From NCBI GenBank assembly GCA_011939005.1, contig GCA_011939005.1_4858.1: a DNA stretch of 64,000 nt; one strand, written 5' to 3'. Positions 11,961 through 44,631 of the stretch are shown one piece after another. The position numbers and the translations under genes were made by a program. Position 1 is the first letter of the stretch. Every line of letters starts with the position of its first letter. Source of the DNA: a phage. The notes under the pieces are model-generated. The model made no database searches. It was given only the letters and a program-made list of their open reading frames with translations, and was not told the origin of the DNA.

Positions 11961-14144
11961 TCACTTTGGTAATTGGTCTAACCGGAAGCCATCCATGTCA
12001 CGGTCGGCCACGCGCTCGGCAAGCGTCAGCTCCTCAAATGACGTCCGCACACGGATAATATCAATAGGCGGCTGTACCATATCGACCACAACATCCTGCT
12101 CGACCTTCACGCGGATACCAGGGTAGACATTCATCCGCAACTTAATACGTTGCGGGATTGCCATTTCCTTTATCACGGGAGCGACAGGGATGGGCTTATC
12201 CGTCGTCATGAATGAACTACGGCTCACACGCTGCACGTCTGTCAGAGGGTAAATGATATTTGTTGTATCGGCAGCCTCTGCGAGAATATCATCCAGAATC
12301 GGGATGACTGGGTCGGTGACATCGTAGGTGTCAGAACCCATACGTGCGGCAAAATGGACAGTGTACGACGAAAGCTTCGTCATTAACCGCACCATCGCGC
12401 GTTGTATTTCAGCTTGTGAGACAGACGCACGTGTTTCCAGATTAGTGGCCACGTTTAAAGCGTCGGTGGCGATATCCTGCCAGGTTTCCGCGGAGACTAA
12501 CTCGTAATCAAAACCAAACGTTTTGAAGAACTCGTCGTAATCGCGGTAAGGTAGGTCAAGATCGCACTTATAGTCACGGTAATGATAGGTAAACAGCATT
12601 GTGCCGGCAGCACGGTCGGCTAGCTTGTGTCGATTATACGAGTAACGGTAACGACGACGCTTCTGCACCATGATTTCGCTGATTTCATCGTACAGCTCAT
12701 CTGCAGACATCAAATTACCGATAACTTCATGATGCGTGTCCGTGTAATAGTTAATCAACGCATTAAAACGACCGGGCCATGAGCTTGGCAGATGCTGCTC
12801 CATCTCATCAAAACCAACCCAGCGTTTGATTAACACACCAAACACGTTCCACACCGGGATCTTATCCAGTGCTACGCCAGAATAACCTTTGAAGCTCGCA
12901 TACAAGAACAGTGCCAGCAGCTCTTTTGAAGTGAGCTTTAGCGTATCCCCGTTCGTTGGGTTAAGAATTTCGTGGTAAATGTTGTACTGTCCACGTGCCA
13001 CGATATGCATCCACTCGTTGAACAAGCCATGCATAAATTCCCAACGTTCGATGGCCTCTGGGTCAATCGCCGTTACCTCAACTAACTTCGTTGGCAGGTT
13101 CGGATACTGCGTCAAGCTCAAACGCCGATCGAGGTCTTCCTGATAGTCAGGTTCGTGCACTGGGTTATTGTACGCCAGTTTGATTTCTTTCTGGATGATG
13201 TCAGTTGTGCTAACAATGTCCAGGTCACGGCCCGAGTCACGTTCAGTATAGTTAAGCGACGACTGGTAGCCGATCGGGAGTGGTGTCAGGTCATCGTCGC
13301 TGCCCGTCGTCGGGTCGTGAATCTGCTGGGCGACCTTATATCCAACAGCAGGCATACCCCAACCTGTCAGCAGGGTGTCAATCATCCAAGTAAAGATTTC
13401 TTCCTTACCAGAGTTACGTTCCCAGTAACGGATATTGCGATACAGTGTGAATTTCTGCTTGAGGGTCAGGTACGGCATGAACTCGTGCAGTTCTTGGTGC
13501 GAAGCCAAGAACTCGGTCACGTAGTAGGAGTGCGTTTCGGTCGTAAACTGTAATCGTTTGCGGATGTACATGATAAGCCCCGGCCACACCGGGTACTGCT
13601 GCATGTAAAAGGCCAGTACGAAACAGTCGTTGTGAACTTTCCAGCCATCGGCCATGAAACGTACATGTGCCGCACGAATAAAGTTCTCAATATGTGTAAT
13701 TAACGACGTCTCCTGCGGTTCAACTAAAGCAGGATCGTAATACAAAATTGAGCAGTCATCGACACGTATCGCGTATGCAATATCAATCGGATTGAAAGTG
13801 CCGCGAATGTATACTGCGTAGTCCGGATACTCGGCGATTAAGTCATCGATATACTCCGGGTTAGAACGATATACGTTTGAGGTCTTTTTATGACGGGAGA
13901 GGTTCTGCGTCGTTAACTCTATCTGCTCTTGCGTGTCGAGTGACGTAATGTATATCGGCTTGTCGATTGCATGTCGTTTACCTGCTAAGTGTAGGTAATA
14001 CCGCCACGTCTCACGGTTCTCGGAAACGAAACCGCCGTTTTTGGTTATTGCCAGGTTCATCTGTTGTGCGATGCTCTCTGATTTGACAATCAGGGATTTC
14101 GCTAACTGGATAGCCTGGTCACGAAAAATGTTAAATCTCTGCAT
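11961..14144 (-). CDS. hypothetical large protein (727 aa)
   Basis: long ORF; first in-frame ATG at 14144 (ORF-track start 14156 is TTG); diverges from the plus-strand gene starting at 14156. Confidence 0.5.
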   Translation of the reverse strand: MQRFNIFRDQAIQLAKSLIVKSESIAQQMNLAITKNGGFVSENRETWRYYLHLAGKRHAIDKPIYITSLDTQEQIELTTQNLSRHKKTSNVYRSNPEYIDDLIAEYPDYAVYIRGTFNPIDIAYAIRVDDCSILYYDPALVEPQETSLITHIENFIRAAHVRFMADGWKVHNDCFVLAFYMQQYPVWPGLIMYIRKRLQFTTETHSYYVTEFLASHQELHEFMPYLTLKQKFTLYRNIRYWERNSGKEEIFTWMIDTLLTGWGMPAVGYKVAQQIHDPTTGSDDDLTPLPIGYQSSLNYTERDSGRDLDIVSTTDIIQKEIKLAYNNPVHEPDYQEDLDRRLSLTQYPNLPTKLVEVTAIDPEAIERWEFMHGLFNEWMHIVARGQYNIYHEILNPTNGDTLKLTSKELLALFLYASFKGYSGVALDKIPVWNVFGVLIKRWVGFDEMEQHLPSSWPGRFNALINYYTDTHHEVIGNLMSADELYDEISEIMVQKRRRYRYSYNRHKLADRAAGTMLFTYHYRDYKCDLDLPYRDYDEFFKTFGFDYELVSAETWQDIATDALNVATNLETRASVSQAEIQRAMVRLMTKLSSYTVHFAARMGSDTYDVTDPVIPILDDILAEAADTTNIIYPLTDVQRVSRSSFMTTDKPIPVAPVIKEMAIPQRIKLRMNVYPGIRVKVEQDVVVDMVQPPIDIIRVRTSFEELTLAERVADRDMDGFRLDQLPK

Positions 14145-14155
14145 CGGAGACCCCA

Positions 14156-16900
14156 ATGGAAGATATTAGTAAATTAACGGGCGACCCCGCGGTAGCTGCC
14201 ATACTGCGTAAGTCCACGAGCCCGTCGGCTCAGCAGCAACGCGGTAAGCGTGAAGATGGCGGTGTTACACCAACCCGTACAGAACTCACGGGCATTGCGA
14301 GTAGCCGCATTCGCACCGTTAAAAATGCCGAACGTATCTTTGATGCGCTCCCTGAGTTAGAGGTCATTGTTACCATCGCGACCTCCTCACTCCTGTCCAC
14401 AAAAGATTTGATTAACACCACGCTGATTTACGACAACGTGGCTGATATCCCGATCGACCTGCGTCAGCAGTTATTGGAACCTGTGCGTGAATTCCATGAC
14501 CACACGCGCCAGTTGCCCAACAAACTGTATCAGTGGATTTACGATGCACTGAAATCCAAAGGCGCGAGCCCAGTGTTGCTGATTTCAGATACCGGATTCG
14601 ATGAACTCTTCGGCTTAAAGCCGTCTGTTGCAACCGAATCGTTGCGCCGTAGCCAATCTGACTTCTTTGAACGTCAGTTGGGTATCCTGGGCAAGATTGG
14701 CGGTGAGAACAAACCGAAGGTTGGTGTAGAAAGTATTCTGGGCCGTGCACGTGGCGCTGACAAGCCCACCAAGCCACAAACCATTAAACTTAACTTTGCA
14801 TCAGCCCCTAACAGTCCGTTTAAAGCAGACGGTATGTTAGCTTCCCTGGATATCGTTATCACCGACAACCCGCGTATTACCCTGCTACCAGAGGCTTATC
14901 GCCGTGTGGCACAGGAGAATGCTCGCACCGGCCTGTTCGGTCAGTTAGAGCAGTACGCATATGAACAACCTTCTACGCCGACAGGTGCGTCAGAGTATAA
15001 CGCTGACCAGTTCACAGACAGCGAACAAGAGAAGGCAAAACTCGGTTTAATCAACATCGGCGACCTCAACGAAGCGTACCAGAAAACGCCTGAGCAAAAG
15101 CTTTACGGCGAAGTACCGAAGATGAGTTTCTCCGATGCTAACAAAATCGAATACACGGAACGATTACTGCCAGCAGAGTCCACACTCCCGCTCGTTATCG
15201 GTGATGATGTTCGTAACCCCATAGGTTATCTGGCCATCGTTGACGAAATGGGTAACTTCATTAACTCGCGTTCCACACTTTACGGGGATGCGAACTTCAT
15301 GAACTACCTGAACAACGACGGTATGGTAGATTCGACAATCAACCGTGCGAATCTGGGGATGGGCAACACAACCAGAATCACACCAGACATTGCTAACCGC
15401 TTAACAGCGCGTTATGGTGAAATTGCTGAAGACCAGCTAACCAAAGCTCTGGGTGAGGCGTTGGGTGGTGCTGAGATTAGCATGACAGTAACCGAAACGT
15501 TCAGCCGTATCATGCTGGCGCGCCATCTGGCAAAACGCCATACGCAGGTTATTTATATTCCTGCGGAAAACCTTTGCTACTTCGCCACGGACTTTGATGA
15601 AGACGGCATCGGTGTGTCTATTACCGAACGTTCGTTCGTTATCTCTACTGTCCGTATGGCGCTGCTGTTCGCTACCATGAACTCTGCGGTGTTAAACTCT
15701 GCCCGTCACATGCAGTACGACATTGAGTTGGCGCCAGACGACATGAACGGTCAGAAAACAATTGACCAGCTGAAAACAGACATCATGAACTCCTATAACC
15801 GTCGTCAACCGATGTGGGGGGACATGAACGACACCTGGGCAATGACGACAAACGCAGGTATTGCGTTTAACGTTATTGGTAACGACTACTACGGTAGTAC
15901 CAAAGTGTCTGTGTCGGATACTACGCCGGATTATAAATACCCGGATAAGGATTTCGACGAAGGTCTGTTACGTCGCACTTGTCACATCGCAGGTGTTGAC
16001 CCTGACCTGGTAATGACCCCCGAGAACATCGAATTCGCTTCACAGATTTTCTCTAAATCGTTACTGGTCACCCAGCAGGTTGTTAAGAAGCAAGAGATTC
16101 TCTCTAAGCCACTGACACGTTACGTAGTTAATGGGATGTTGGCCTCTCCGTCGTTGCAATCAGCGATGATTAAAATCATTGCAGAGTACATCAACGCTAA
16201 CGGTAATGGGATGACTACTGACCAGATTACGAAAAAGGTCTCTGAGTACCTGGCTGCGTTTATCAACGGTATGAAAGTAACCTTACCACCGCCAGACACC
16301 TCTGCAGCAGCTTCGCAGATGGAGCTGTTCGATAAACGTACGGAGTTCTTTGAGAAGCTGGCTGATCTGGTTGTAACGGATGACATTGCTGCGCAACTCC
16401 AGCAAGAAGGCATCACGATGGACCCGAACGATCTGAAGACGATGATCAAGTCCTTCTATACGCGCAACTGGCTGCGTAAACAAGGCATTGAAACTGACTT
16501 CTTCGATCTGGTTTACGACGATAAATCTCGTCAAGACAACATCACCATGATGACTGATGAAGCGATGGCTGCTTCGAAGACGCTGATTCAGTTGGCGAAA
16601 CGTTTTACAGGTCGTCTGGAAACGTTGGCGAAAAATGCTGACCTTGACCCTAACGAATCTGCTGGCGGATTCAGCGGTGGTTTTGATGCGGGCGGTGACA
16701 CCGGTGGCGGCGAGGGAGATCTCGGTGGTGGAGGTGACGATGATTTAGACCTCGATTTCGATACGGATAACGGAACCGACGGGGATAGTACAGGGGAAAC
16801 GACTGAGTCGACCGAAACCACGGAAACAACTACCGAGGGAACGGAAGGCACAGAAGGTGGTGAAGGAACTACCGACGACAACCCAGACAACGTCCTCTAA
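14156..16900 (+). CDS. RNA polymerase beta-prime N-terminal-like subunit, variant catalytic motif DFDED
   Basis: SRIMLARHL...CYFATDFDEDGIGVS...RMALLFATMNSAVL parallels bacterial beta-prime NRAPTLHRL...NADFDGDQMAVH...ALMMSTNNIL; C-terminal Gly/Asp/Thr/Glu low-complexity tail; GGAGA SD. Confidence 0.5.
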   Translation: MEDISKLTGDPAVAAILRKSTSPSAQQQRGKREDGGVTPTRTELTGIASSRIRTVKNAERIFDALPELEVIVTIATSSLLSTKDLINTTLIYDNVADIPIDLRQQLLEPVREFHDHTRQLPNKLYQWIYDALKSKGASPVLLISDTGFDELFGLKPSVATESLRRSQSDFFERQLGILGKIGGENKPKVGVESILGRARGADKPTKPQTIKLNFASAPNSPFKADGMLASLDIVITDNPRITLLPEAYRRVAQENARTGLFGQLEQYAYEQPSTPTGASEYNADQFTDSEQEKAKLGLINIGDLNEAYQKTPEQKLYGEVPKMSFSDANKIEYTERLLPAESTLPLVIGDDVRNPIGYLAIVDEMGNFINSRSTLYGDANFMNYLNNDGMVDSTINRANLGMGNTTRITPDIANRLTARYGEIAEDQLTKALGEALGGAEISMTVTETFSRIMLARHLAKRHTQVIYIPAENLCYFATDFDEDGIGVSITERSFVISTVRMALLFATMNSAVLNSARHMQYDIELAPDDMNGQKTIDQLKTDIMNSYNRRQPMWGDMNDTWAMTTNAGIAFNVIGNDYYGSTKVSVSDTTPDYKYPDKDFDEGLLRRTCHIAGVDPDLVMTPENIEFASQIFSKSLLVTQQVVKKQEILSKPLTRYVVNGMLASPSLQSAMIKIIAEYINANGNGMTTDQITKKVSEYLAAFINGMKVTLPPPDTSAAASQMELFDKRTEFFEKLADLVVTDDIAAQLQQEGITMDPNDLKTMIKSFYTRNWLRKQGIETDFFDLVYDDKSRQDNITMMTDEAMAASKTLIQLAKRFTGRLETLAKNADLDPNESAGGFSGGFDAGGDTGGGEGDLGGGGDDDLDLDFDTDNGTDGDSTGETTESTETTETTTEGTEGTEGGEGTTDDNPDNVL

Positions 16901-22166: not shown

Positions 22167-22185
22167 CGTAGATAATATCTATCTC
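22167..22185 (-). promoter_or_regulatory. promoter-like motif GAGATAGATATTATCTACG (class 2, copy b)
   Basis: GATAGATATTATC core about 40 nt upstream of ATG 22130. Confidence 0.35.
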
Positions 22186-22243: not shown

Positions 22244-22327
22244 TCAAACGTGGTGACCGTTCGCCATAGAACCGCGCCCATCAAACATCGGTGCAACTAG
22301 TCTTGATCTCTCTAAATTGACTTCCAT
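22244..22327 (-). CDS. small ORF (27 aa), candidate
   Basis: AAGGAGA SD 7 nt upstream of ATG 22327 (MEVNLERSRLVAPMFDGRGSMANGHHV); about 40 nt downstream of class-2 motif copy c. Confidence 0.2.
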   Translation of the reverse strand: MEVNLERSRLVAPMFDGRGSMANGHHV

Positions 22328-22360: not shown

Positions 22361-22384
22361 CTCCCTAAGATAATATCTATCTAT
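22361..22384 (-). promoter_or_regulatory. promoter-like motif ATAGATAGATATTATCTTAGGGAG (class 2, copy c)
   Basis: near-identical to copy a (1856-1876); directly downstream of terminator 22408-22431. Confidence 0.35.
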
Positions 22385-22462: not shown

Positions 22463-24763
22463 TTAGCCGCCAGCGCCTTCACCGCCAGTACCTGGCTGGG
22501 TAGCGCCGCCGCCAACATCACCCGCATTACCGCCATTAGTACCGCCAGTACCGTTGGAAGTAGTAGTGACGTTGAACGCCAGTTTCTCTTCCACGAACTT
22601 GGTGATACCTTTAATCCAGATCAGACCAGTGATCGGGCAGTGGCAGATGTGCGCGTTACGAGGCTGTACTGCCAGCTCTTTGCTGGTAGCGCCGTTACGC
22701 TGGATGTTGATGTTGGTTACCATGATCGGAGACCAGAAGTGGTTACCCCAGTTCAGAACACAGTAAGAACCGTCATCAGCGGTTGGAACTTTCAGAACCC
22801 ACTGCAGGCGGCGAGTCCAGCTGCCGTCAGCTTCGTTCTTCACACGCCAGCGGTCATCGTTGGTGGTGATAACTTCGTACTCGTAGCGATCGCCCAGCAG
22901 ACGCTGGTCACCCTGAACCAGCAGCAGCATTGCAGCAGTCGGTTCGTCAGTTGCGATAACAACTTTCGGCAGTGCGTTCGGGTCCGCAGTCAGCAGGCGC
23001 AGAGCCGGCATGAAACGAGAATCCTGGATAGCACGAGTTACCTGGTCGCCGATACGCTGTACCAGACCCTGACGGGCGTTGATGAGCGCATCTTTGGTAT
23101 CCAGAGACTGGATCACTTTGTCCACTTCGTAGTCGCTTTCGCTGTACCACGGAGCAACCCAGTGACGGCCCAGGCCGCGGATAGCAGGTTTGTCCCACGG
23201 AGTGATCATGGACGCAGCTGCGTTCTTAACCGCTTCGGTGTAAGACAGAGTCTGAGTGATAGCCAGCATTTCGTTACGGATGTTAACCGCAGAAACGAGG
23301 TCGTCCAGACGTTCGGTGTCGTCGTATTCAACGCCAACCGGAGATTTGGTCATGATCGGAGAACCGTACTGCAGTTTGTAGTTCTCTTGTTCCCAAATCG
23401 GGTCGAGCAGAAGGCCCTGGGTTCTCCGGTTCTCGTTGGTACGAGTACCGTCGAAGCGCCAGCCCAGCAGCTCCAGTTTCAGGTTGTCGATGATGACTTT
23501 GCCGGTGCCGCTTTCGATATCAACAGCAGTACCAGTTGCGTCGTACAGACCTTCGATTTCCAGAGACGGTGCAGTCACGTCAACACGACCAGAGAACTGA
23601 CCGTTGGTGAACAGAGACATGCTGATGTTCATGGAATAACGAATGGTGTAATCGTTCTGTGCCAGAGCGGCCAGTGCCGGGATTTCAGCACCTTTCCAGT
23701 CCAGAGACTTGGCGTTCAGGGAGAACACAGTGCGACGGAACTGCAGGACCAGCTCACGGCCATCACCTTCAGGAGGACGCTGGAAGGTAGCGAACTGCAT
23801 GTCGCGTACGTTCAGTTTGATCAGCGCGCCATCTTTCGCTTCTTCAGTCGGCTTACGCACAGACAGCAGCAGGCTACCCAGCGCTGCACCCGGTGCGATT
23901 TCGTCGGTTTCATCGTAACCTTCCTGCACGATACCCGGATGGGCAGACAGCTGGAACAGGTTCAGACGACGTTCAGAGAAGCTCAGGTAGTTGGTCGGAT
24001 ACGCCGGCACACGACCCAGCTGAACGTTTTCGTTTTCGATGATGTCTTCGGATACGAAGAACTTCGCGTTCTCACCGGTTTCCATCACGTAAGGTACGAT
24101 ACGGATAGCATCGTCCTGCAGGACTTTGTGGTTAGACAGCGCGTTATGCAGCGGCTGACGGTTGTCTTCAACCACGTCTTTGGTCAGCAGGGCGTTCAGG
24201 ATACCACGAGTTACAGTAGTAACTTTGGTACGAACGGTGATGCCGACGTCGTTGGTGTCCACAGTGATGGTCGGGAACAGGGTTTCTGCAAACTTGGATT
24301 GAGTTTCCAGAGCACGCACGTTCAGCGTCCAGGTCAGACCCAGGTTTTTGTCCAGGTCTTTGTTGGTGTAGTATTCAGTTGCGACCAGCGGAGTTTTACC
24401 GTAGTCAGCAGCCAGAGATGCTGCACCAGAAATAGCGATCGGCATGTAGCTGGCGTATTCCGGCTTCGCGCTCTCGGCAGCAACACGGGTCATGAAGTCG
24501 TCTTCGTGACCGGCAGCAGCCAGAATCATCGCAGAAGCAACCTGAGCAGCGTGGCTCATGGTTTTGCCAGGGTTTACAGCTTCGTAGTGCTGCTGAGCAG
24601 TGTCACGCAGGTTGGTGAAGCCGGCAGCATTTTTACGTACAGATTCGCCAACGGCTACGGTTTGCCATACGTCATTAGCGGAAGAGCCTGCCTTGGCAGC
24701 AGCGACCAGAGCATTGCCCTGCTGAACCAGCTGGTCCAGACTAGCGATACGGGTATCTTTCAT
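22463..24763 (-). CDS. major virion structural protein (major capsid protein candidate)
   Basis: 766-aa ORF with AAGGTAAA SD and strong terminator; codon periodicity strong enough to leave a 715-aa antisense frame open; Gly-rich C-terminal tail. Confidence 0.4.
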   Translation of the reverse strand: MKDTRIASLDQLVQQGNALVAAAKAGSSANDVWQTVAVGESVRKNAAGFTNLRDTAQQHYEAVNPGKTMSHAAQVASAMILAAAGHEDDFMTRVAAESAKPEYASYMPIAISGAASLAADYGKTPLVATEYYTNKDLDKNLGLTWTLNVRALETQSKFAETLFPTITVDTNDVGITVRTKVTTVTRGILNALLTKDVVEDNRQPLHNALSNHKVLQDDAIRIVPYVMETGENAKFFVSEDIIENENVQLGRVPAYPTNYLSFSERRLNLFQLSAHPGIVQEGYDETDEIAPGAALGSLLLSVRKPTEEAKDGALIKLNVRDMQFATFQRPPEGDGRELVLQFRRTVFSLNAKSLDWKGAEIPALAALAQNDYTIRYSMNISMSLFTNGQFSGRVDVTAPSLEIEGLYDATGTAVDIESGTGKVIIDNLKLELLGWRFDGTRTNENRRTQGLLLDPIWEQENYKLQYGSPIMTKSPVGVEYDDTERLDDLVSAVNIRNEMLAITQTLSYTEAVKNAAASMITPWDKPAIRGLGRHWVAPWYSESDYEVDKVIQSLDTKDALINARQGLVQRIGDQVTRAIQDSRFMPALRLLTADPNALPKVVIATDEPTAAMLLLVQGDQRLLGDRYEYEVITTNDDRWRVKNEADGSWTRRLQWVLKVPTADDGSYCVLNWGNHFWSPIMVTNINIQRNGATSKELAVQPRNAHICHCPITGLIWIKGITKFVEEKLAFNVTTTSNGTGGTNGGNAGDVGGGATQPGTGGEGAGG

Positions 24764-24775
24764 TTCAAGTTTACC

Positions 24776-25300
24776 TTATTTAGATAAATGACATGCGTAC
24801 AACTGCGTCAGCACTTCGTGCGCAGCAAACTGCGTCGACGTACTGAACGTATCATCCACGACACGAGTCTTGGGACGCATATATTTAAAAAGTTCTGCGC
24901 AGAACATCTTTTTCGCAGCGTGGTCTTCACTTAAAGAAAAACCCGGTCCGGATTTAGCTTCTGCAAAAGACGCCACAACAACATCGCCACGTTGTGAGAA
25001 CACCCAACGTAAACGACCGTCGAATGATTCCCCATATAAATCAGCAAGGGTTTCATTCGTACCTTTCTCAACCAGGTTTAAGACCTGGTCATAATAAAGA
25101 GTCGGAAGTGCAGGTGGTGCCATAATCGATTTATAAATCGAAATAGGGTCACTCACTGGCAGTATGATGGAACTAAAGCCCGACGAGCAGTCATATAACC
25201 AGTTAAAGAAGCTTGCTTGGAGTTCCTCCAACTTTTTAACGCCAGCCCCTTTATCTATGTTAGATTGAACTTCCCACGGTGGACTAAAACGAATTTGCAT
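24776..25300 (-). CDS. hypothetical protein
   Basis: start at ATG 25300; diverges from plus gene starting at 25315. Confidence 0.4.
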   Translation of the reverse strand: MQIRFSPPWEVQSNIDKGAGVKKLEELQASFFNWLYDCSSGFSSIILPVSDPISIYKSIMAPPALPTLYYDQVLNLVEKGTNETLADLYGESFDGRLRWVFSQRGDVVVASFAEAKSGPGFSLSEDHAAKKMFCAELFKYMRPKTRVVDDTFSTSTQFAAHEVLTQLYACHLSK

Positions 25301-25314
25301 TTTAAGGATGCTCC

Positions 25315-26877
25315 ATGAATAGTAAAATGATGTTGATAACCGCCTTAGCCGCACTGTATACAGAATCTATGCTGACGGACCCTAGCAAGGATCATGATGT
25401 CATAAGAAAAGTTCTGATGCAGATCAAGCTTCCGGAATATGCGGAAGATGGCGAAGAGCGCTTTGCACTCATCGAGATCAAGGACATTATCACATCTATC
25501 ATAGACGGCGGCATGGAATACGACCACGCGAGCGTTATGAAGCGCTTGAAGCTGGCCACCACTCAAGTACGTCCTCTATACGATACGATTACCAAATTCC
25601 TCGAAGACGATTTGCCCGAGGAAGAAGACAAACGTACCGAGCATCTTAATCGACAACTGTCTCAATATTATTTCCAACTACGTCAATGTTTACAGAGCGT
25701 CGAACTAAAAACAAAAATGGGTCGCGCGTTTGGAGCATTGAATGGAACTGAGACACGTGTTGATCTGAACACCGCAGTGCTCGAACTCAAAGAGGCGCTA
25801 TCTACGTTCGGTGAACGCTCTCATAATAAGATTCCATCACTGGTCGGTGAGCTGGTTACAGATAATCGGGCTCCGTTTGTTAAAGTGTTCGACTCGATTA
25901 ACAAGAAAGCAGCAGGTAATGGTTTGCAGACGGGCTGGAAAGCCATTAACCAAATGCTCGGTTGTAACAAAGGGATTACCGAAGAACTGTGGCTAATGCC
26001 GGCGTTACCTTTTAACTGTAAGTCTTTGTTCAGTCTCTTACTGAGCTTATCGATTCCTATCTTCAACACGCCTGAGAAAGTAATGGCGGATGTGAAGGGC
26101 ACACTGCAACCAATTATTCTTGACTTGAGTTTAGAAAACGAACTCGACGTTAACTTAGCTTACGGCTATCAAGCACTGTACGGTCATTTTGAAGGACAAG
26201 TTCCACAGATGACCATTGCACAGGATGCAACCGCTGAAGAGAAGTTAGCACACACAACAGCAATGTCTGATTACCTCTGTGGTAAGATTCGCGCAAACGG
26301 TTGGGACTACGTTTTCCAAAAGCACACCAACTCCGATTTTAAAGTGCACTACATCAACGACCTTATTCTCGACTTACGTCGTCGCGGTTATCATGTTGTT
26401 GGCATTCGCGCAGACTACTTAGGCACAATCAGCAAAGCAGGACACGGCAACGGCATTGCCGGGAGTGATATCAAAGAAATTTATCGTATTGCTCGTAACA
26501 TCCAAGTGGTACGCAACCGTGGGTTCTTAATTGCCCCACACCAGATTTCCCCAGAAGGTAAGCGCTTAAAAGCGTTAGACCCGGTAGGTTTCTGTAAGAA
26601 CTTACCTGGTCGTGGTCTTTACGATAGTTGTTCGAGCCTTGATAACGAGGCCGATGGTGAAATGTATTTTAACAAGCGTGTGGTCAACGGCCATAGCTTC
26701 TTAGAAGTTCAACGCGGTAAACACCGCACCATTATCGATACTAAAGAATCTTATCACTACACAGTGATACCTTTCCAGGATGTTGGCATCCTACCTTGGG
26801 ATTGTGATAAAGAAGAAACCGTAACAGCGTCGTCTATCAACTTCTTCACCGGTGGAATGGGTGATGATTTGTTCTAA
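25315..26877 (+). CDS. hypothetical protein
   Basis: 520-aa ORF, AAGGA SD 8 nt upstream. Confidence 0.5.
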   Translation: MNSKMMLITALAALYTESMLTDPSKDHDVIRKVLMQIKLPEYAEDGEERFALIEIKDIITSIIDGGMEYDHASVMKRLKLATTQVRPLYDTITKFLEDDLPEEEDKRTEHLNRQLSQYYFQLRQCLQSVELKTKMGRAFGALNGTETRVDLNTAVLELKEALSTFGERSHNKIPSLVGELVTDNRAPFVKVFDSINKKAAGNGLQTGWKAINQMLGCNKGITEELWLMPALPFNCKSLFSLLLSLSIPIFNTPEKVMADVKGTLQPIILDLSLENELDVNLAYGYQALYGHFEGQVPQMTIAQDATAEEKLAHTTAMSDYLCGKIRANGWDYVFQKHTNSDFKVHYINDLILDLRRRGYHVVGIRADYLGTISKAGHGNGIAGSDIKEIYRIARNIQVVRNRGFLIAPHQISPEGKRLKALDPVGFCKNLPGRGLYDSCSSLDNEADGEMYFNKRVVNGHSFLEVQRGKHRTIIDTKESYHYTVIPFQDVGILPWDCDKEETVTASSINFFTGGMGDDLF

Positions 26878-27010
26878 CGAACACTGGGGAGCTTAGGCTC
26901 CCCTACGGGCAGTTTATGCGTCCTGCCAAGATCAAAAAAAAATACGACGAAGTATTTATATGCATGGAATTACCCGAGTGTTCCAGCACTCGGGTAAGAG
27001 TTATTTCATG

Positions 27011-27157
27011 TTAACTTTTGTTTAGTAGTATTTCACCTCCTAAACCCTTGATACGACGAACAGTGTTCTGCTTGGGCGCAGTCAACTGTTGTACACGTTG
27101 GTTGAATTGGGTTTGCTTAACGTAATAGTTAAGTATTTGCGAACGTAGTTGTTCCAT
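27011..27157 (-). CDS. small protein (48 aa), tandem paralog A
   Basis: AGGAGG SD; MEQLRSQILNYYVKQTQFNQRVQQLTAPKQNTVRRIKGLGGEILLNKS; paralogous to 27270-27416. Confidence 0.45.
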   Translation of the reverse strand: MEQLRSQILNYYVKQTQFNQRVQQLTAPKQNTVRRIKGLGGEILLNKS

Positions 27158-27173
27158 GTAGTGCCTCCTTAGG

Positions 27174-27196
27174 CAGGTTGTTAATATATCGCTGCG
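27174..27196 (-). promoter_or_regulatory. early-type promoter motif variant CAGCGATATATTAACAACCTG
   Basis: ATATATTAAC differs by 1 nt from the ATATATTACC core of the three main copies; about 20 nt upstream of the SD of 27011-27157. Confidence 0.3.
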
Positions 27197-27269
27197 CTGT
27201 GGTGGTACACAATGCACCGATATACTGTCACGGGAGTTAAAAGGGGTGCTCGAACACCCCTGGTTAGTG

Positions 27270-27416
27270 TTACTTCTTATTGAAGATGATGTCACCTCCT
27301 AGTCCTTTAATGGTACGGGTGGAAGTCTGCGGTTGGCGGCTAACCTCTTGCAGACGTTGTTGAAAAGCGACATGTTTCAGCTGTTGCTGACGCAGTTGTT
27401 GCATAAAGGTATTCAT
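27270..27416 (-). CDS. small protein (48 aa), tandem paralog B
   Basis: AGAGGT SD; MNTFMQQLRQQQLKHVAFQQRLQEVSRQPQTSTRTIKGLGGDIIFNKK. Confidence 0.45.
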   Translation of the reverse strand: MNTFMQQLRQQQLKHVAFQQRLQEVSRQPQTSTRTIKGLGGDIIFNKK

Positions 27417-27442
27417 GTTAACCTCTAAGTGGATGTGAATAA

Positions 27443-27464
27443 GCTCTCTCCTTCGGGAGAGAGC
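27443..27464 (+). terminator. plus-oriented intrinsic terminator (hairpin followed by T-run on +)
   Basis: stem GCTCTCTCC/GGAGAGAGC with TTCG loop then GCCTTTTATTTTCTTTT; nearest upstream plus-strand gene ends at 26877. Confidence 0.45.
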
Positions 27465-27499
27465 GCCTTTTATTTTCTTTTCGGAAAATAAATATAAAA

Positions 27500-27523
27500 C
27501 CCTCTTACCCGAAGGTAAGAGGG
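27500..27523 (-). terminator. intrinsic terminator hairpin, UUCG loop
   Basis: identical sequence to hairpin 240-263; follows stop of 27530-28390. Confidence 0.5.
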
Positions 27524-27529
27524 GTACTA

Positions 27530-28390
27530 CTACGGTTTATAATCAACTTCGTTGATCTTACCGCAAGCCGGACAAGTAATGTTCATTGTCTGCGAAGTGT
27601 AGCGATGGGTTCTCGGTACGGTAGCGACATGGTTGCGGTTACAGCCGGAACACGTCCAGCCAACCACTGGTGCCTTCGATTGTTTCTGGGCAGGTGTGTC
27701 TTCTTTTAACAATGCGACTACCGCGTGAAATTTACGAAGCTCTGCGTTAACATGCGCTTCCCAGTCGGCGTCCAAACGCGCCGTGAACCAACGTTGAATC
27801 TTCTGGCCAAGTCCGTCTTGATTTTCTTCTTCATGGGACATCACAAACTTGAGATTTGCGCGACCCCATTGCACGACGTTCTCTACTTTAATCCCGTCTA
27901 CGGTGTCGCTGATTGGCGTATAGTTAAAAGTTGGATAGGTGAGATAACAAGCTTCAGCTGTTGCAAAGACAGTATTGCCTTCAAACAGTGCCATGGCCTC
28001 ATCGCCCTTAGCATCCTTCTGTGCGGCTTCCAATCGTGGGCAATGGAAACCTTCAAGTTGTTGGATTTTGGTCGTTAGCGCATTGATACCCTGTAGCACG
28101 GCAATGCGCTTTTTGCTGTCTGTGATCGTCGCCATTACCTTGCACAACGCGCGCGAGATAGCGCTATACATTGACGTTTTGCGGTTTTCATCGAGGAAGC
28201 GCTCTTGCTGCTCCAGGTCGTAAGAAGACAGGCCGTAGCTCTGCCCTTCGACCAACACGACGTAAGTACGACGTTTGTCACGGTCCAGCTGGACAATGGC
28301 CGCATCGGTTAACGGATCGCTAGCCAATACTTCGTGGTCTGGAGGTAGGGGGAAATCTGAACTTTTGATAAAATCAGTAATGCTGTACAT
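27530..28390 (-). CDS. hypothetical protein with C-terminal zinc-ribbon
   Basis: start at ATG 28390 with AAGGA SD; C-terminal CSGC...CPAC (two CxxC pairs). Confidence 0.5.
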   Translation of the reverse strand: MYSITDFIKSSDFPLPPDHEVLASDPLTDAAIVQLDRDKRRTYVVLVEGQSYGLSSYDLEQQERFLDENRKTSMYSAISRALCKVMATITDSKKRIAVLQGINALTTKIQQLEGFHCPRLEAAQKDAKGDEAMALFEGNTVFATAEACYLTYPTFNYTPISDTVDGIKVENVVQWGRANLKFVMSHEEENQDGLGQKIQRWFTARLDADWEAHVNAELRKFHAVVALLKEDTPAQKQSKAPVVGWTCSGCNRNHVATVPRTHRYTSQTMNITCPACGKINEVDYKP

Positions 28391-28394
28391 TTTT

Positions 28395-28811
28395 TTAGTC
28401 CTTAAGAGAGTTAATAAAGTCATCTAAACTAATATCACGGAATGGGAAGTAAACACCTTCAAGCGGAATCGTGTAGTGTTCACTAATGGCACGTTGCCAA
28501 TCCAGAACAGTTGCGGGGTAGTTCACAACCTCAAAGTTAGGATGCGTAATTGGCGGAATTGCGTTGTAAACATAGCCGTTAATATTTTTCGATGGGAACG
28601 CTGCACGGAACTTCGGCTCCATGTAGAACATTTCCTCTTTTACTTCCTGGCCTTCCCAGAAACGATAGCCACCCTTACCGTCAGGAATATAAATCGCCTT
28701 GTCACGGGGTATAGGGGAATCCTTGGATAGCGGAACAAATCGTCCGTACTGGTCAAGGACCATCCAGTCGGTGTCATTCTTTAAATACTTTTGGAGCTTC
28801 TCATTAATCAT
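28395..28811 (-). CDS. hypothetical protein
   Basis: 138-aa ORF. Confidence 0.5.
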   Translation of the reverse strand: MINEKLQKYLKNDTDWMVLDQYGRFVPLSKDSPIPRDKAIYIPDGKGGYRFWEGQEVKEEMFYMEPKFRAAFPSKNINGYVYNAIPPITHPNFEVVNYPATVLDWQRAISEHYTIPLEGVYFPFRDISLDDFINSLKD

Positions 28812-29436: not shown

Positions 29437-29461
29437 CACCTAGGTAATATATATCTGAAAT
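29437..29461 (-). promoter_or_regulatory. early-type promoter motif TTTCAGATATATATTACCTAGGTGA (copy 2)
   Basis: 25-nt motif, identical to 37940-37964 and 1 nt different from 159-183. Confidence 0.5.
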
Positions 29462-37939: not shown

Positions 37940-37964
37940 CACCTAGGTAATATATATCTGAAAT
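37940..37964 (-). promoter_or_regulatory. early-type promoter motif TTTCAGATATATATTACCTAGGTGA (copy 3)
   Basis: 25-nt motif identical to copy 2; directly downstream of terminator 37999-38020. Confidence 0.5.
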
Positions 37965-42227: not shown

Positions 42228-43346
42228 TTACAGTACCGGATTCGCGCCGACGCGATAGGCATCGATGATTTTGTTTACATCGCCGCTACCGGACTTCGCC
42301 TTGCTAAAGTCTGATTTGTCGAGTTCTTGAGACCCGGTCTGGCCACGCGTATAAATGGTTACACGGTTCCAGGTCTGGTCGACAACCACGTAGTAAACAG
42401 TCAGGGTGTCTTTGAACACACGCTGGCGGATATTGTAATCATCGAAGTCACCGCCCAGCTGAGCAGTCAGATCGTCGATAGTTTCTTGAGAAACCACCAT
42501 AACCGAAGACGCGTTGTTGATGGATGGGCTCAGCGTCAGTAGGCCAGACAGCCAGTTGGCGTTTTTCTTTTCCATCATCTTGCGGTAATAACCGGACTTA
42601 TCACGGAAGCGGTTCTTACGGTATTCTTCGATAAGGTCATTACACAGCGCGATATCTTTCGCGTAGCTGAGAGAACCGACCTTCGCACGCAGCACGCGTT
42701 CCCAGAAGGTTTTAGTCTGATCGCTGAACGCAATCAGTGTTTTCATTTCGTCGGTTGGCAGAGACTTCACATCAAGACGCAGACGCATCGGCAGCTCAAC
42801 TTTATTACCGTCACGTTCGAAGGTAACAGAGAACACTTTACCGTTGGACAGTCCTTCTTGATCATGCAGGAGCTTCAGTGTGTTGTTCGGCAGCACAGAA
42901 CCTGCGGATGATTCAGTCGCTACTTTGTTATCGGATTTCTGGCGACGGGATTCACCGACCGCAAGCCCGATTTTATCGTATGACGGCAGCGCGTGACGGG
43001 AGGACTCGCCGATTGCGAAAGACGCTAAGCGAGAACCCGAACGTGCAGCCGCGTCGAGGGCATTACGACGGGTGCTAACCTGGTCAAGCGTACCAAGGAT
43101 ATCAACCTCAGGAACACCTACCAGAATTGAGATGGCGGTAAGTTGGTTGCCCGCGAGCAGGATTTGGATTTTCTCCAGAATACCTGGCAGGTAATCTAAG
43201 CCCAACAGACTTTGTTCAACCAGCGTGGTGTGCTCGTTGTACAGCACAGAGTTGAATTCTTCCGTCGATTCCGCCCGCTGGCGAAGCAGCATGGGAAACT
43301 TAGAAAGAAAGGAGACGAGCGATGTCTCAAATGTTTTTTCTGCCAT
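42228..43346 (-). CDS. hypothetical protein
   Basis: 372-aa ORF; diverges from plus gene at 43369. Confidence 0.5.
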   Translation of the reverse strand: MAEKTFETSLVSFLSKFPMLLRQRAESTEEFNSVLYNEHTTLVEQSLLGLDYLPGILEKIQILLAGNQLTAISILVGVPEVDILGTLDQVSTRRNALDAAARSGSRLASFAIGESSRHALPSYDKIGLAVGESRRQKSDNKVATESSAGSVLPNNTLKLLHDQEGLSNGKVFSVTFERDGNKVELPMRLRLDVKSLPTDEMKTLIAFSDQTKTFWERVLRAKVGSLSYAKDIALCNDLIEEYRKNRFRDKSGYYRKMMEKKNANWLSGLLTLSPSINNASSVMVVSQETIDDLTAQLGGDFDDYNIRQRVFKDTLTVYYVVVDQTWNRVTIYTRGQTGSQELDKSDFSKAKSGSGDVNKIIDAYRVGANPVL

Positions 43347-43368
43347 TTTTAACTAAACTCCGGAGTTA

Positions 43369-44631
43369 ATGATGAGTAACGAGACCGATAAGAACGATCC
43401 GGGGTATGACCCGAATACCGACTACGACAATTCGTATCAAAACCCGAATAATATCGATGCAGTACCATCGGTCGCCGACTACTTTGACCGTCGACTGTCC
43501 GATGCGAAACCCACCACGGCGTACAACGTTAATGATGAGTTATCGGGTTGGAATGACCGTATCCGTCTTACGTTAGGTTTGGGTCTGGCTGCGCAGCGTG
43601 TGACCAACCCCTACATGGGGTTCAACCATATGATGGCGTCGAACCCGACGCCTGTTAACCGTGAGTACGGTGGCCTAACCTTCATTACCCGCCCTGACTT
43701 CAACTTGTGCTTTGACAACATTGCCAACTCGCGCAAGATGTCGAACATGGCTTCTCAGCCGAAATCGTCACTCGACTATTCCATTCTGGCAGCGTTAGAC
43801 CCAGATTTTGAATTGGGGTTCTCTGATTCACCGATGGAAGATGGGCGAAGAAAGAACCGTTTGGGCACGCCATTCATGAAGGACATTATGTTTGACAATC
43901 TTCAGGCATTCATACCATTGCTGAGTACACAGATGCTGAGCCTCTCGGGGATGCCTGACCAGTCTGTCGATAACTGGATGTCTGAAGAAGGTTTAATGCG
44001 CGAACAGTGGGGTATGGTTGACTCCACACATGAAATCAATAACCAGTACAGTATGTCGATGTCGCTGAACAACCCATACGGCAACCCAATCATGCGAATG
44101 ATGGGCGTGTGGCTGGAGTATATGTCCGGCATTAAGATGGGTAAGTTCAAACCGAAGATGCGTAATTCCATCCAGCGTCGCATTGACTACCAATCGAGGA
44201 TGTACGGGTTTAAATACGACGCGCTCGGAAACATCACTCGTTTCTGGACAGCGTGTGTTTGTTGGCCGATGAACGATAACGCCGGTCAAATGGCGAATGT
44301 CGATAACACCAAGCCTCAATTAAATGACGACACCACAATTAACCTCAACTGGCAATGCATCGGGGCGCGCTTCGATGACCCATTGTACATGGAGATGTTC
44401 AACTTGACGGTGTCTATGTTTAACCCGGATATGATGCCGCAACCAGGGAGCGTTGCAGCGGGCAACTTTATCCCGATTGCTGAAGACCAGCTTGTGCCGA
44501 TTGCACCACAGCTACTACCGCTGTTCAACTACTACGGCTATCCGCACATCGACTCCCTGCGTCGTAAACTGACCTGGTATGTTTATCAGGCAGATTACCA
44601 ATTCATCCTTAAACGAGCGGGCTTACTGTAA
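43369..44631 (+). CDS. hypothetical protein, possible structural protein
   Basis: 420-aa ORF, GGAG SD; stop overlaps next start (TAATG). Confidence 0.5.
   Translation: MMSNETDKNDPGYDPNTDYDNSYQNPNNIDAVPSVADYFDRRLSDAKPTTAYNVNDELSGWNDRIRLTLGLGLAAQRVTNPYMGFNHMMASNPTPVNREYGGLTFITRPDFNLCFDNIANSRKMSNMASQPKSSLDYSILAALDPDFELGFSDSPMEDGRRKNRLGTPFMKDIMFDNLQAFIPLLSTQMLSLSGMPDQSVDNWMSEEGLMREQWGMVDSTHEINNQYSMSMSLNNPYGNPIMRMMGVWLEYMSGIKMGKFKPKMRNSIQRRIDYQSRMYGFKYDALGNITRFWTACVCWPMNDNAGQMANVDNTKPQLNDDTTINLNWQCIGARFDDPLYMEMFNLTVSMFNPDMMPQPGSVAAGNFIPIAEDQLVPIAPQLLPLFNYYGYPHIDSLRRKLTWYVYQADYQFILKRAGLL

Follow-up and report, generated by a model that had tools for sequence, protein, structure and literature searches.

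Between the gp70 operon of a jumbo phage and a convergent gene for a DnaB-like replicative helicase lie two very small genes, and the locus raises the question of whether these are real and, if so, whether transcription of the helicase strand runs antisense across both. The DNA analyzed here, a stretch of 64,000 nucleotides (the window), is ~98% identical to the Salmonella jumbo phage SPN3US. The helicase gene (gp73, plus strand, 25315-26877, by annotation) forms one of four inverted plus-strand islands in the window, and gp70 (minus strand, 27530-28390), which encodes an essential non-virion protein (PMC5105663), is the last gene of the operon on its other side.

Coding status and distribution of gp71 and gp72

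The initial annotation had placed two minus-strand ORFs at 27011-27157 and 27270-27416, and both the coordinates and the peptides given for them were reproduced. The first is a gp72-type gene (SPN3US_0072) encoding the 48-aa protein MEQLRSQILNYYVKQTQFNQRVQQLTAPKQNTVRRIKGLGGEILLNKS and the second a gp71-type gene (SPN3US_0071) encoding the 48-aa protein MNTFMQQLRQQQLKHVAFQQRLQEVSRQPQTSTRTIKGLGGDIIFNKK. Both proteins are 98-100% identical to those of SPN3US and match the PHROG 18219 profile over residues 1-48 of its 48 positions (E = 6.8e-27 for gp72 and 4.9e-27 for gp71). They are not new, as the SPN3US annotation already contains both as hypothetical proteins; the literature we searched does not mention them. 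With 45% identity between the two peptides (E = 4e-12), their description as tandem paralogs was confirmed, as was the suspicion that one had been fused into a longer frame in the ORF list: the downstream ORF was merged into a 94-aa, GTG-started frame (27011-27295), while all homologues are 47-49 aa long and the gp72-type start is the ATG at 27157. A strong Shine-Dalgarno sequence had also been claimed for each ORF. Read from the sequence, the gp72 ribosome-binding site is AAGGAGG (27164-27170, minus strand), 6 nt from the ATG, and that of gp71 is AGAGG (27422-27426, minus strand), at a position kept in all orthologues. Because the latter site is weaker, the claim is fully true for gp72 only.

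Across the family, dN/dS was 0.06-0.35 in 10 pairs, with synonymous change saturated; the values were 0.18-0.35 for gp72 compared to its orthologues and 0.33 for gp71 compared to JN03. Together, the low dN/dS, the conserved length and ribosome-binding site, and the full-length PHROG 18219 matches indicate that gp71 and gp72 are real protein-coding genes. The ORFs are nevertheless tiny, and a search for proteomic evidence gave none, as would fit a conserved element that is untranslated and acts as a noncoding RNA or as a gene on the opposite strand. We consider this very improbable, given the dN/dS values and saturated synonymous change, the conservation of the ribosome-binding site, and a sense frame that is open throughout while the antisense frames are not. 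Moreover, an Rfam scan of 26700-27700 returned only chance-level microRNA-like matches, with scores far under the gathering scores. Opposite-strand ORFs were rejected, both a 32-aa frame on the plus strand (26916-27014) and those antisense to the small genes, as they do not stay open in other genera.

The family comprises ~30 clusters, all on contigs of ~240 kb, and is limited to three related genera of phages, whose genomes carry 0, 1, or 2 copies; an exhaustive profile search detected no further relatives. The IKGLGG motif shared by the two peptides, which had been proposed as something to look for in other jumbo phages, is therefore confined to one clade and is not general. The small gene is missing from Asesino, Caitlin, Kwan, and Phobos, single-copy in JN03, SPAsTU, Machina, and pEa11, and two-copy in SPN3US-type phages. 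The spacer between gp71 and gp72 is present in two-copy phages only, and a search for its origin gave no match outside them. The possibility that the single copy of JN03 is a simple deletion recombinant of the two-copy state was rejected, its 3' end and downstream flank being SPAsTU-like and not gp72-like. In all 20 gene-bearing loci compared, from three genera, the small gene follows a gp70-like operon and is convergent with a DnaB-like helicase gene, and its leader and downstream spacer are conserved at least as strongly as the gp70 coding sequence. The small genes are thus an optional module inserted between the gp70 operon and the convergent helicase gene, which would be bracketed by outward-stopping signals.

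Properties of the small protein

The AF2 model consists of an amphipathic N-terminal helix (residues 3-26) and a C-terminal beta-hairpin (strands at residues 35-38 and 41-44), joined by a basic linker, with the KGLGG motif forming the turn of the hairpin. The family is very basic (pI 10.4-12.0, median 11.1), its mean hydrophobicity is negative, and its longest hydrophobic run is 4 residues, with no signal sequence and no membrane segment. Neither Pfam, PADLOC, and PDB sequence searches nor Foldseek of the AF2 model detected credible similarity to any characterized family. The weakest of our inferences is that the protein may be soluble, form oligomers, and bind either nucleic acid or an acidic partner, serving as an accessory early factor; this proposal is weak because the homology and structure searches give it no support.

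An acidic residue and a 7-residue tail come after the conserved GG, which might suggest that the peptides are precursors cut at this site, with the conserved C-terminus as the peptide set free. They could be double-glycine leaders from which a 7-residue signal is cleaved, or substrates of the prohead protease, and GGE would fit the phiKZ protease motif S/A/G-X-E. However, the motif of the SPN3US protease (gp245) is AXE, whereas the peptides carry G-G-D/E, roughly half of the family having D, and the proteins are absent from the SPN3US head and prohead supplementary tables searched. In the consensus for double-glycine leaders, positions -4 and -7 ahead of the GG are hydrophobic; here the GG is preceded by I-K-G-L, the residue at -4 is G, which is not hydrophobic, and that at -7 is R or T. 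Since there is also no Pfam family match and no signal sequence, and the AF2 model puts the GG at a beta-turn inside the hairpin, processing at this site is scarcely credible. Two further candidates were rejected: an arbitrium-type signaling propeptide, as there is no hydrophobic segment and the N-terminus is a polar amphipathic helix, and a type I toxin of the small hydrophobic or membrane-active kind, given the short hydrophobic run, the high pI, and the negative mean hydrophobicity.

Hairpins and transcription signals around the module

Between 25000 and 29500, 10 terminator-like sites were detected, compared to 4.1 +/- 2.1 in shuffled sequence. Two of these face each other upstream of gp71. 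Hairpin A (27500-27523), which together with its T-run spans 27485-27523 on the minus strand, is the terminator of the gp66-gp70 operon; compensatory changes are found in 7 of its 10 pairs, and its G.U wobbles favor the gene strand in 4 lineages. The second, hairpin B, lies in the 5' leader of gp71 and on the plus strand (27443-27482), where our scan recovered the hairpin of the initial annotation at 27443-27464 together with its plus-strand T-run. It has a 9-bp stem with 6 G-C pairs, a TTCG loop, and the tail GCCTTTTATTTTCTTTTC, with the T-run TTTTATTTTCTTTTC at 27468-27482. The two hairpins are ~35 nt apart, and their facing T-runs form an AT palindrome, TTTATTTTC-N6-GAAAATAAA (27469-27492), in all genera examined.

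Hairpin B and the two hairpins on the helicase side of the module (hairpins 1 and 2, below) were compared among relatives by per-sequence folding, rather than by RNAalifold on MAFFT alignments, because stem lengths differ between genera. The covarying stem of hairpin B occurs in six sequence versions, all of which keep the pairing, and is accompanied by a T-run (A-run on the gene strand) that stays invariant in three genera. In the Huxley-type variant, folding is stronger on the helicase strand (-19.3 kcal/mol) than on the gene strand (-14.4 kcal/mol); this is the only asymmetric version, found in 4 related loci and probably representing one or two mutational events. The CTTTTAT tail of hairpin B is common to the other three plus-strand terminators of the window, each of which directly follows its gene. 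Based on the invariant T-run, the covarying stem, the strand asymmetry, and the common tail motif, hairpin B is best read as an intrinsic terminator for the helicase strand and the mirror of the gp70 terminator A.

The same element could instead serve the sense strand, with the A-rich block as a promoter or upstream element and the hairpin as a regulatory or stabilizing 5' stem-loop, in which case there would be no meaningful antisense transcription. It is always directly upstream of the small gene, even where the helicase gene has its own terminator, and the short sequence TCACA is kept at 4-8 nt beyond hairpin B; in addition, phiKZ middle promoters carry an AT-rich element near -24 (PMC7598289), and 201phi2-1 has small RNAs derived from 5'UTRs. 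However, the A-rich block is unlike the recurrent promoter motif of the window and present only once, it is an exact mirror of the T-run of terminator A with a tail as in the other plus-strand terminators, the Huxley-type change produces a C.A mismatch on the gene strand and G.U pairs on the opposite strand, and Asesino and Caitlin carry the same A-run and hairpin without a small gene. A sense-strand role is accordingly improbable. The AAAGAAAATAAAAG block was also considered as a recurrent promoter and rejected, since one exact copy (at the small-gene locus) and one match with 2 mismatches in the window are at chance level.

On the helicase side, hairpin 1 (26886-26903) directly follows the helicase stop at 26877 and, as initially annotated, is not followed by a plus-strand T-run; the same is true of every Seoulvirus, Machinavirus, and Erskinevirus locus examined. 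The helicase 3' region further contains a T9/A9 run (26934-26942) and a near-invariant block, GGCAGGACGCATAAACTGCCC, which together occupy 26906-26942, are conserved with or without the small gene, and are unique in the window. The GGACGCATAAACT block was rejected as a recurrent motif, as the window contains one exact copy and the other 18 matches (2-3 mismatches) do not exceed what chance would give. Close behind the stop of gp72 lies hairpin 2 (26970-26997, 11 bp), which has no proximal T-run on either strand; its stem covaries, and its loop flips between close relatives. With a moderately T-rich tail on the plus strand, GAGTTATTTC, hairpin 2 could end a fraction of the helicase transcripts ahead of gp72. 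Relatives that lack the small gene likewise have their first proper terminator for the helicase strand beyond the helicase-proximal hairpin.

As the hairpin after the helicase gene is without a T-run, read-through across the small genes is the natural expectation in this phage, and antisense transcription across gp72 and gp71 is plausible because the hairpin upstream of them appears to be a conserved terminator of the opposite strand. A transcriptome for SPN3US-like phages, whether strand-specific RNA or start sites, was not found in the literature. We infer that RNA polymerase on the helicase strand would run antisense through gp72 and then gp71 and stop at hairpin B, and that stopping there would keep antisense transcription out of the essential gp70 operon. 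Sense and antisense transcription would then overlap, most likely reducing the amounts of small protein made at any time that the helicase strand is transcribed, via polymerase collision or double-stranded RNA. Taken as a whole, the model of real small genes in an optional module, closed by terminator B and covered over gp72 and gp71 by helicase read-through, is one that we hold slightly more probable than its negation. No shared promoter motif was seen by eye upstream of the four plus-strand islands.

The source of sense transcription can be proposed with similar caution. No sense promoter was identified for gp71, and terminator A looks strong; transcription of the small genes would most likely arise by read-through of terminator A from an early-type promoter at 29445-29455. 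For gp72, a candidate promoter is provided by ATATATTA (27182-27189, minus strand), the core of the early-promoter-like motif of the window, which occurs in only 4 copies there, all on the minus strand. Compared to GATA[T/G]ATATTA, the core matches at 8/8 positions and the GATA prefix is missing, and compared to the extended consensus TTTCAGATATATATTACCTAGGTGA, the match is weak (~15/25 positions). This degenerate copy of the early-type promoter may add to gp72 transcription. Between the two copies, a hairpin with a short TTT tail after gp71 (27242-27261, minus strand) is a weak terminator of the sense strand.

The conservation of hairpin B cannot be ascribed to helicase read-through alone. 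In Wellingtonvirus relatives, the helicase gene has its own proximal terminator, composed of an A-run and hairpin, yet the small gene keeps hairpin B, and for this reason we assign hairpin B to the small-gene module. One explanation would be that the module carries its own helicase-strand promoter for a dedicated cis-antisense RNA. A TATG (26959-26962, plus strand; CATA on the gene strand) lies 7-9 nt from hairpin 2 and fits the phiKZ late-promoter motif, T(-3)ATG(+1) at the start site (PMC7598289), making it a candidate phiKZ-type start. An RNA initiated here, with the A9 run ~24 nt upstream, would begin 7-9 nt before hairpin 2, which would form its 5' stem-loop, and would extend across gp72 and gp71 together with their ribosome-binding sites as far as hairpin B. 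Its size would be ~510 nt in this phage and ~250 nt in phages with one copy, and its role would be to silence, at middle or late times, a small protein made early. The TATG is invariant in 11 aligned loci and in all further gene-bearing loci read, at this fixed distance from hairpin 2 and inside an otherwise variable spacer, and it is absent in Asesino and Caitlin, both without the small gene. Such an RNA would account for the retention of hairpin B in Wellingtonvirus despite the helicase-proximal terminators, as well as for the conservation of hairpin 2 without a T-run on either strand, and phiKZ has antisense RNAs with defined start sites. However, a 4-nt motif is weak evidence, the spacing from A-run to TATG varies from 12 to 19 nt, and the promoter rules come from phiKZ and not from the SPN3US clade. 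We therefore regard a dedicated promoter as possible but rather unlikely. Slightly more doubtful still is a broader proposal, in which the module would be a self-contained sense/antisense unit that moves between jumbo-phage genomes, pairing an early, very basic 48-residue protein with such a dedicated cis-antisense RNA, made from the invariant TATG by the phage non-virion RNA polymerase, and thereby providing a timed off-switch for a host-takeover or anti-defense factor.

Significance and relation to known systems

If antisense transcription across gp71 and gp72 does occur, the locus would be a compact, clearly bounded example of antisense control in a nucleus-forming jumbo phage, a group in which transcription and translation occur in separate compartments and regulation at the RNA level is little known. 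The natural 0-, 1-, and 2-copy variants are ready-made controls, and the arrangement would offer a first handle on an uncharacterized family of small basic proteins adjoining the replicative helicase. The value is modest, as the genes are already annotated, the family is narrow, and the layout resembles known convergent-terminator and antisense arrangements.

PHROG 18219 and SPN3US gp71-gp72 are the same family as the genes described here, without difference, and carry no description of function, expression, or regulation. The module also resembles morons (self-contained cassettes of accessory genes, which are defined in temperate phages and expressed from the prophage) in that a small gene is patchily present in variable copy number between terminators, in an intergenic position with its own flanking signals. 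In contrast, the jumbo phage here is lytic, and for the upstream copy, gp71, a sense promoter of its own was not found. Type I toxin-antitoxin systems are similar in having a protein of <60 residues, here possibly covered by a cis-antisense RNA with stable end hairpins, but here a strictly lytic phage encodes a hydrophilic, very basic protein, and both toxicity and the antisense RNA are hypothetical. Excludon-type overlaps, in which long 3'UTRs create antisense overlap between convergent genes, occur in Listeria and other bacteria, and share with the proposed arrangement a long transcript of one gene lying antisense over its opposite-strand neighbor with negative coupling. Here, however, the overlap is predicted from sequence features, the genes covered are tiny and accessory, and the polymerases are phage-encoded.

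A further parallel is found in phiKZ-type phages, which like the SPN3US group are nucleus-forming jumbo phages with their own RNA polymerases. Intrinsic terminators, opposed pairs of termination sites, and antisense RNAs have all been described in them. In phiKZ, such paired sites lie between convergent genes, 23-183 nt apart, and most phage 3'UTRs are <100 nt (Putzeys et al. 2024, PMC10914365). The locus described here likewise has two GC-rich hairpins, each with a T-run on its own strand, facing at ~35 nt. It differs in that the helicase stop (26877) is separated from hairpin B (27443) by gp71 and gp72, and the predicted helicase 3'UTR would consequently be ~590 nt long and antisense to coding sequence.

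Coding status and range of the small genes

Across 26000-28500, the Salmonella jumbo phage SPN3US and its closest relatives are 98.3-98.4% identical to the window, and both 48-aa genes, gp71 and gp72, are already annotated in SPN3US as hypothetical proteins, SPN3US_0071 (27270-27416, minus) and SPN3US_0072 (27011-27157, minus), so they are not new. The pair is flanked on one side by gp70 (27530-28390, minus), an essential non-virion protein in SPN3US (PMC5105663), and on the other by the DnaB-like helicase gene gp73 (25315-26877, plus). On re-reading of the window, the ORF sequences, coordinates, and hairpins of the initial annotation all checked out, and the 94-aa ORF of the mechanical list was, as proposed there, an artefact, with an upstream GTG extension absent from every homologue. 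The strong Shine-Dalgarno sequence ascribed to both genes was confirmed for gp72 (AAGGAGG), but gp71 has a weaker AGAGG.

Several lines of sequence evidence indicate that gp71 and gp72 are real genes. They are paralogs, as previously claimed (45% pairwise identity, E = 4e-12), and both match PHROG 18219, a 48-position profile, end to end (E ~1e-27). Orthologues of 47-49 residues are found at the equivalent position in Seoulvirus, Machinavirus, and Wellingtonvirus phages, and the distance from either ribosome-binding site to the start is conserved. Pairwise dN/dS among the small genes is 0.06-0.35, with synonymous sites near saturation between genera, and the sense frame is open at all loci, while no antisense frame is kept open.

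A word-indexed profile search returned ~30 clusters, every one on ~240 kb contigs or their fragments, and when 1.84 billion representatives were searched exhaustively with an HMMER profile, no credible match emerged apart from three of the same clade. The xIKGLGG ending, suggested earlier as a motif to seek in other jumbo phages, is therefore the signature of one clade's family rather than a general jumbo-phage motif. Judging from its distribution, the small gene is dispensable and mobile: it is missing in Asesino, Caitlin, Kwan, and Phobos, whose helicases are 67-87% identical to that of the window, and is present as one copy in most relatives and as two copies only in SPN3US-type genomes. 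The two copies in the window are two alleles, each found singly in other Seoulvirus genomes, the gp71 type in JN03 and the SPFM phages and the gp72 type in SPAsTU and two metagenomic contigs; the JN03 allele is a mosaic across the conserved KGLGG-coding segment. In GenBank records LR535901, LR535903-LR535908, LR535911-LR535913, and LR535917 of SPFM phages, the window is matched in 31-40 separate pieces and the small ORF appears as 65-68-aa 'fused' versions (P0008-P0010), which look like products of indel-rich assemblies and not real variation.

AlphaFold2, using a 30-sequence alignment, modeled residues 3-26 as a helix (pLDDT ~85), followed by a linker of low confidence and a C-terminal beta-hairpin (35-38 and 41-44) in which the GG of KGLGG forms the turn (mean pLDDT 69.8). 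Helix positions 4, 8, 18, 22, and 25 form one fully conserved hydrophobic stripe, and Q20, R21, K37, G38, G41, and I43 are invariant in the family. Net charges among its members range from +4 to +9 and the median pI is 11.1; cysteine is nearly absent, and hydrophobic runs never exceed 4 residues. No credible similarity to a characterised family was detected in Pfam, PADLOC, a PDB sequence search, or Foldseek. Given its features, the protein is not a membrane toxin, secreted propeptide, or double-glycine leader, and its G-G-D/E site does not fit a substrate of the SPN3US prohead protease, which cleaves after AXE. Both proteins are absent from the SPN3US head and prohead supplementary tables, which is uninformative if the protein is non-virion. 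Our best guess, purely by inference, is that the protein is soluble, forms oligomers, and binds nucleic acid or an acidic partner.

Hairpins and probable termination on the helicase strand

The order of leader elements on the gene (minus) strand is fixed across genera: hairpin A (27500-27523), then TTTATTTT, a few bases, AAAATAAA, hairpin B (27443-27464), ~25 nt, the ribosome-binding site, and ATG. Together, the AT runs TTTATTTT and AAAATAAA form a perfect palindrome, so that hairpins A and B each carry the same T-run on their own strand. The leader and the downstream spacer, both noncoding, show conservation equal to or above that of the gp70 coding sequence (86%, 82%, and 71.5% identity, respectively, to SPAsTU; 67.5%, 70.6%, and 55% to Machina). 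Hairpin A displays compensatory changes in 7 of its 10 pairs, and its G.U wobbles confer greater gene-strand stability in four lineages, as expected for the gp70-operon terminator.

Hairpin B occurs in six stem versions across relatives, with pairing kept in all. The only asymmetric version, in Huxley, pSal-SNUABM-04, pEa_SNUABM_43, and one metagenomic contig, forms G.U pairs on the helicase (plus) strand (-19.3 kcal/mol) but is mismatched (C.A) on the gene strand (-14.4 kcal/mol). The tail of hairpin B is (N)CTTTTAT, and the window's three other plus-strand gene islands each finish with a hairpin and this tail immediately past the stop codon. The A-rich block beside hairpin B was considered as a recurrent promoter motif and rejected, as it has one exact copy in the window. 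Based on the paired stem variants, the strand asymmetry, the common tail, and the lack of recurrence of the A-rich block, we conclude that the plus-oriented terminator proposed at this site is real by comparative criteria and that hairpin B would serve as an intrinsic terminator of helicase-strand transcription.

The earlier observation that the hairpin following the helicase stop (hairpin 1, 26886-26903) lacks a T-run holds here and in all Seoulvirus, Machinavirus, and Erskinevirus loci examined. In Asesino and Caitlin, which have no small gene, hairpin 1 is followed by the near-invariant block GGACGCATAAAC, an A9 run, and one bidirectional hairpin that has a T-run on either side, an order implying that the usual end of the helicase unit is the first hairpin with a T-run beyond the block. 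In this phage that element is hairpin B, 565 nt downstream, past gp72 and gp71; hairpin 2 (26970-26997), just past the gp72 stop, has a moderately T-rich, unconserved plus-strand tail. Because hairpin 1 has no T-run, the tail of hairpin 2 is only moderately T-rich, and hairpin B is the first hairpin with a T-run, helicase-strand transcripts likely read through antisense to gp72 and gp71. A search of the literature found no transcriptome for SPN3US-like phages.

The T9/A9 run and near-invariant block GGCAGGACGCATAAACTGCCC (26906-26942) beside the helicase stop is unique in the window, and relatives retain it whether or not they carry the small gene. The putative stem of the block has lost pairing in SPAsTU and pEa_SNUABM_29, with no compensatory change, so the block probably represents a sequence signal rather than a structural one. 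In the near-identical Huxley (L009) and pEa_SNUABM_43 (L010) loci, where hairpin 2 lies 17 nt past the small-gene stop, its loop is inverted from one to the other (GTG-TTACAG-CAC versus GTG-CTGTAA-CAC) with the inner GTG/CAC pairs of the stem invariant, which looks like a loop flip between inverted-repeat arms.

The antisense read-through initially proposed is expected from the terminator layout in this phage, but is insufficient to explain the conservation of hairpin B, as Wellingtonvirus illustrates. In pEa_SNUABM_11 and two metagenomic contigs, Wellingtonvirus genomes with the small gene, a separate A-run and hairpin terminator for the helicase lies near its stop and is homologous to that of the gene-less Kwan, and pEa_SNUABM_11 and the SRR27258056 contig have an additional A-run and hairpin after the T-run that follows hairpin 2. 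Hairpin B and its A-run are still found upstream of the small gene, and their retention despite a helicase-proximal terminator argues that hairpin B belongs to the small-gene module, where it would stop any helicase-strand RNA leaving toward the gp70 operon. Downstream of the Wellingtonvirus small gene (L008, pEa_SNUABM_11, 1750-1900; L022, ~850-1050), ~150 nt without a conserved ORF lie between two helicase-strand terminators and may represent a noncoding RNA or a small transcription unit on the helicase strand.

Candidate promoters in both directions

A candidate source of antisense RNA in those Wellingtonvirus genomes is the module itself. CATA on the gene strand, reading TATG on the helicase strand (26959-26962), lies 7-9 nt from hairpin 2, is invariant in all gene-bearing loci within an otherwise variable spacer, is absent from Asesino and Caitlin, and resembles the phiKZ late-promoter motif T(-3)ATG(+1) (PMC7598289). 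An antisense RNA made from this TATG, starting with hairpin 2 and ending at hairpin B, is conceivable but improbable, and, a four-base motif being weak evidence, we rank it below read-through from the helicase.

For the sense direction, GATA[T/G]ATATTA (extended form TTTCAGATATATATTACCTAGGTGA) has six exact copies in the window, all intergenic, on the minus strand, and upstream of genes (167-177, 1865-1875, 22173-22183, 22371-22381, 29445-29455, and 37948-37958); allowing one mismatch gave 7 matches versus 1.2 expected. RNA-polymerase-encoding jumbo phages have AT-rich, phage-specific early-promoter motifs (PMC7598289), which GATA[T/G]ATATTA fits, and it is probably the early (virion RNA polymerase) promoter consensus of this phage. 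One copy (29445-29455) stands at the head of the operon whose last gene is gp70, and since gp71 and gp72 both lie behind terminator A, they are probably reached by its read-through. A ATATATTA core lies 25 nt before the gp72 start codon, with the extended motif matched weakly (~15 of 25 positions), and no promoter was identifiable for gp71.

A possible unannotated small gene is the 27-aa ORF MEVNLERSRLVAPMFDGRGSMANGHHV (22244-22327, minus), which is preceded by an AAGGAG ribosome-binding site. It sits directly behind the motif copy of 22371-22381, within the 332-nt gap that follows the major capsid gene (22463-24763, minus). Plus-strand islands begin only 11-22 nt from a divergent minus-strand gene start (25300-25315, 14144-14156, and 43346-43369). 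With such gaps, promoters of both directions must lie inside the neighbour's coding sequence, and the gp74 and major capsid transcripts must start inside the helicase gene or past it, running antisense to that gene.

Comparison with phiKZ-type phages

Phages of the phiKZ type use intrinsic terminators, place opposite termination sites in pairs between convergent genes (spacing 23-183 nt), and produce antisense RNAs with defined starts (PMC10914365). The family described here is narrow, and its locus is arranged in a variation on known layouts. The locus falls within the general phiKZ-type layout, its own feature being one or two small accessory genes placed inside the helicase 3' region, upstream of the helicase terminator.
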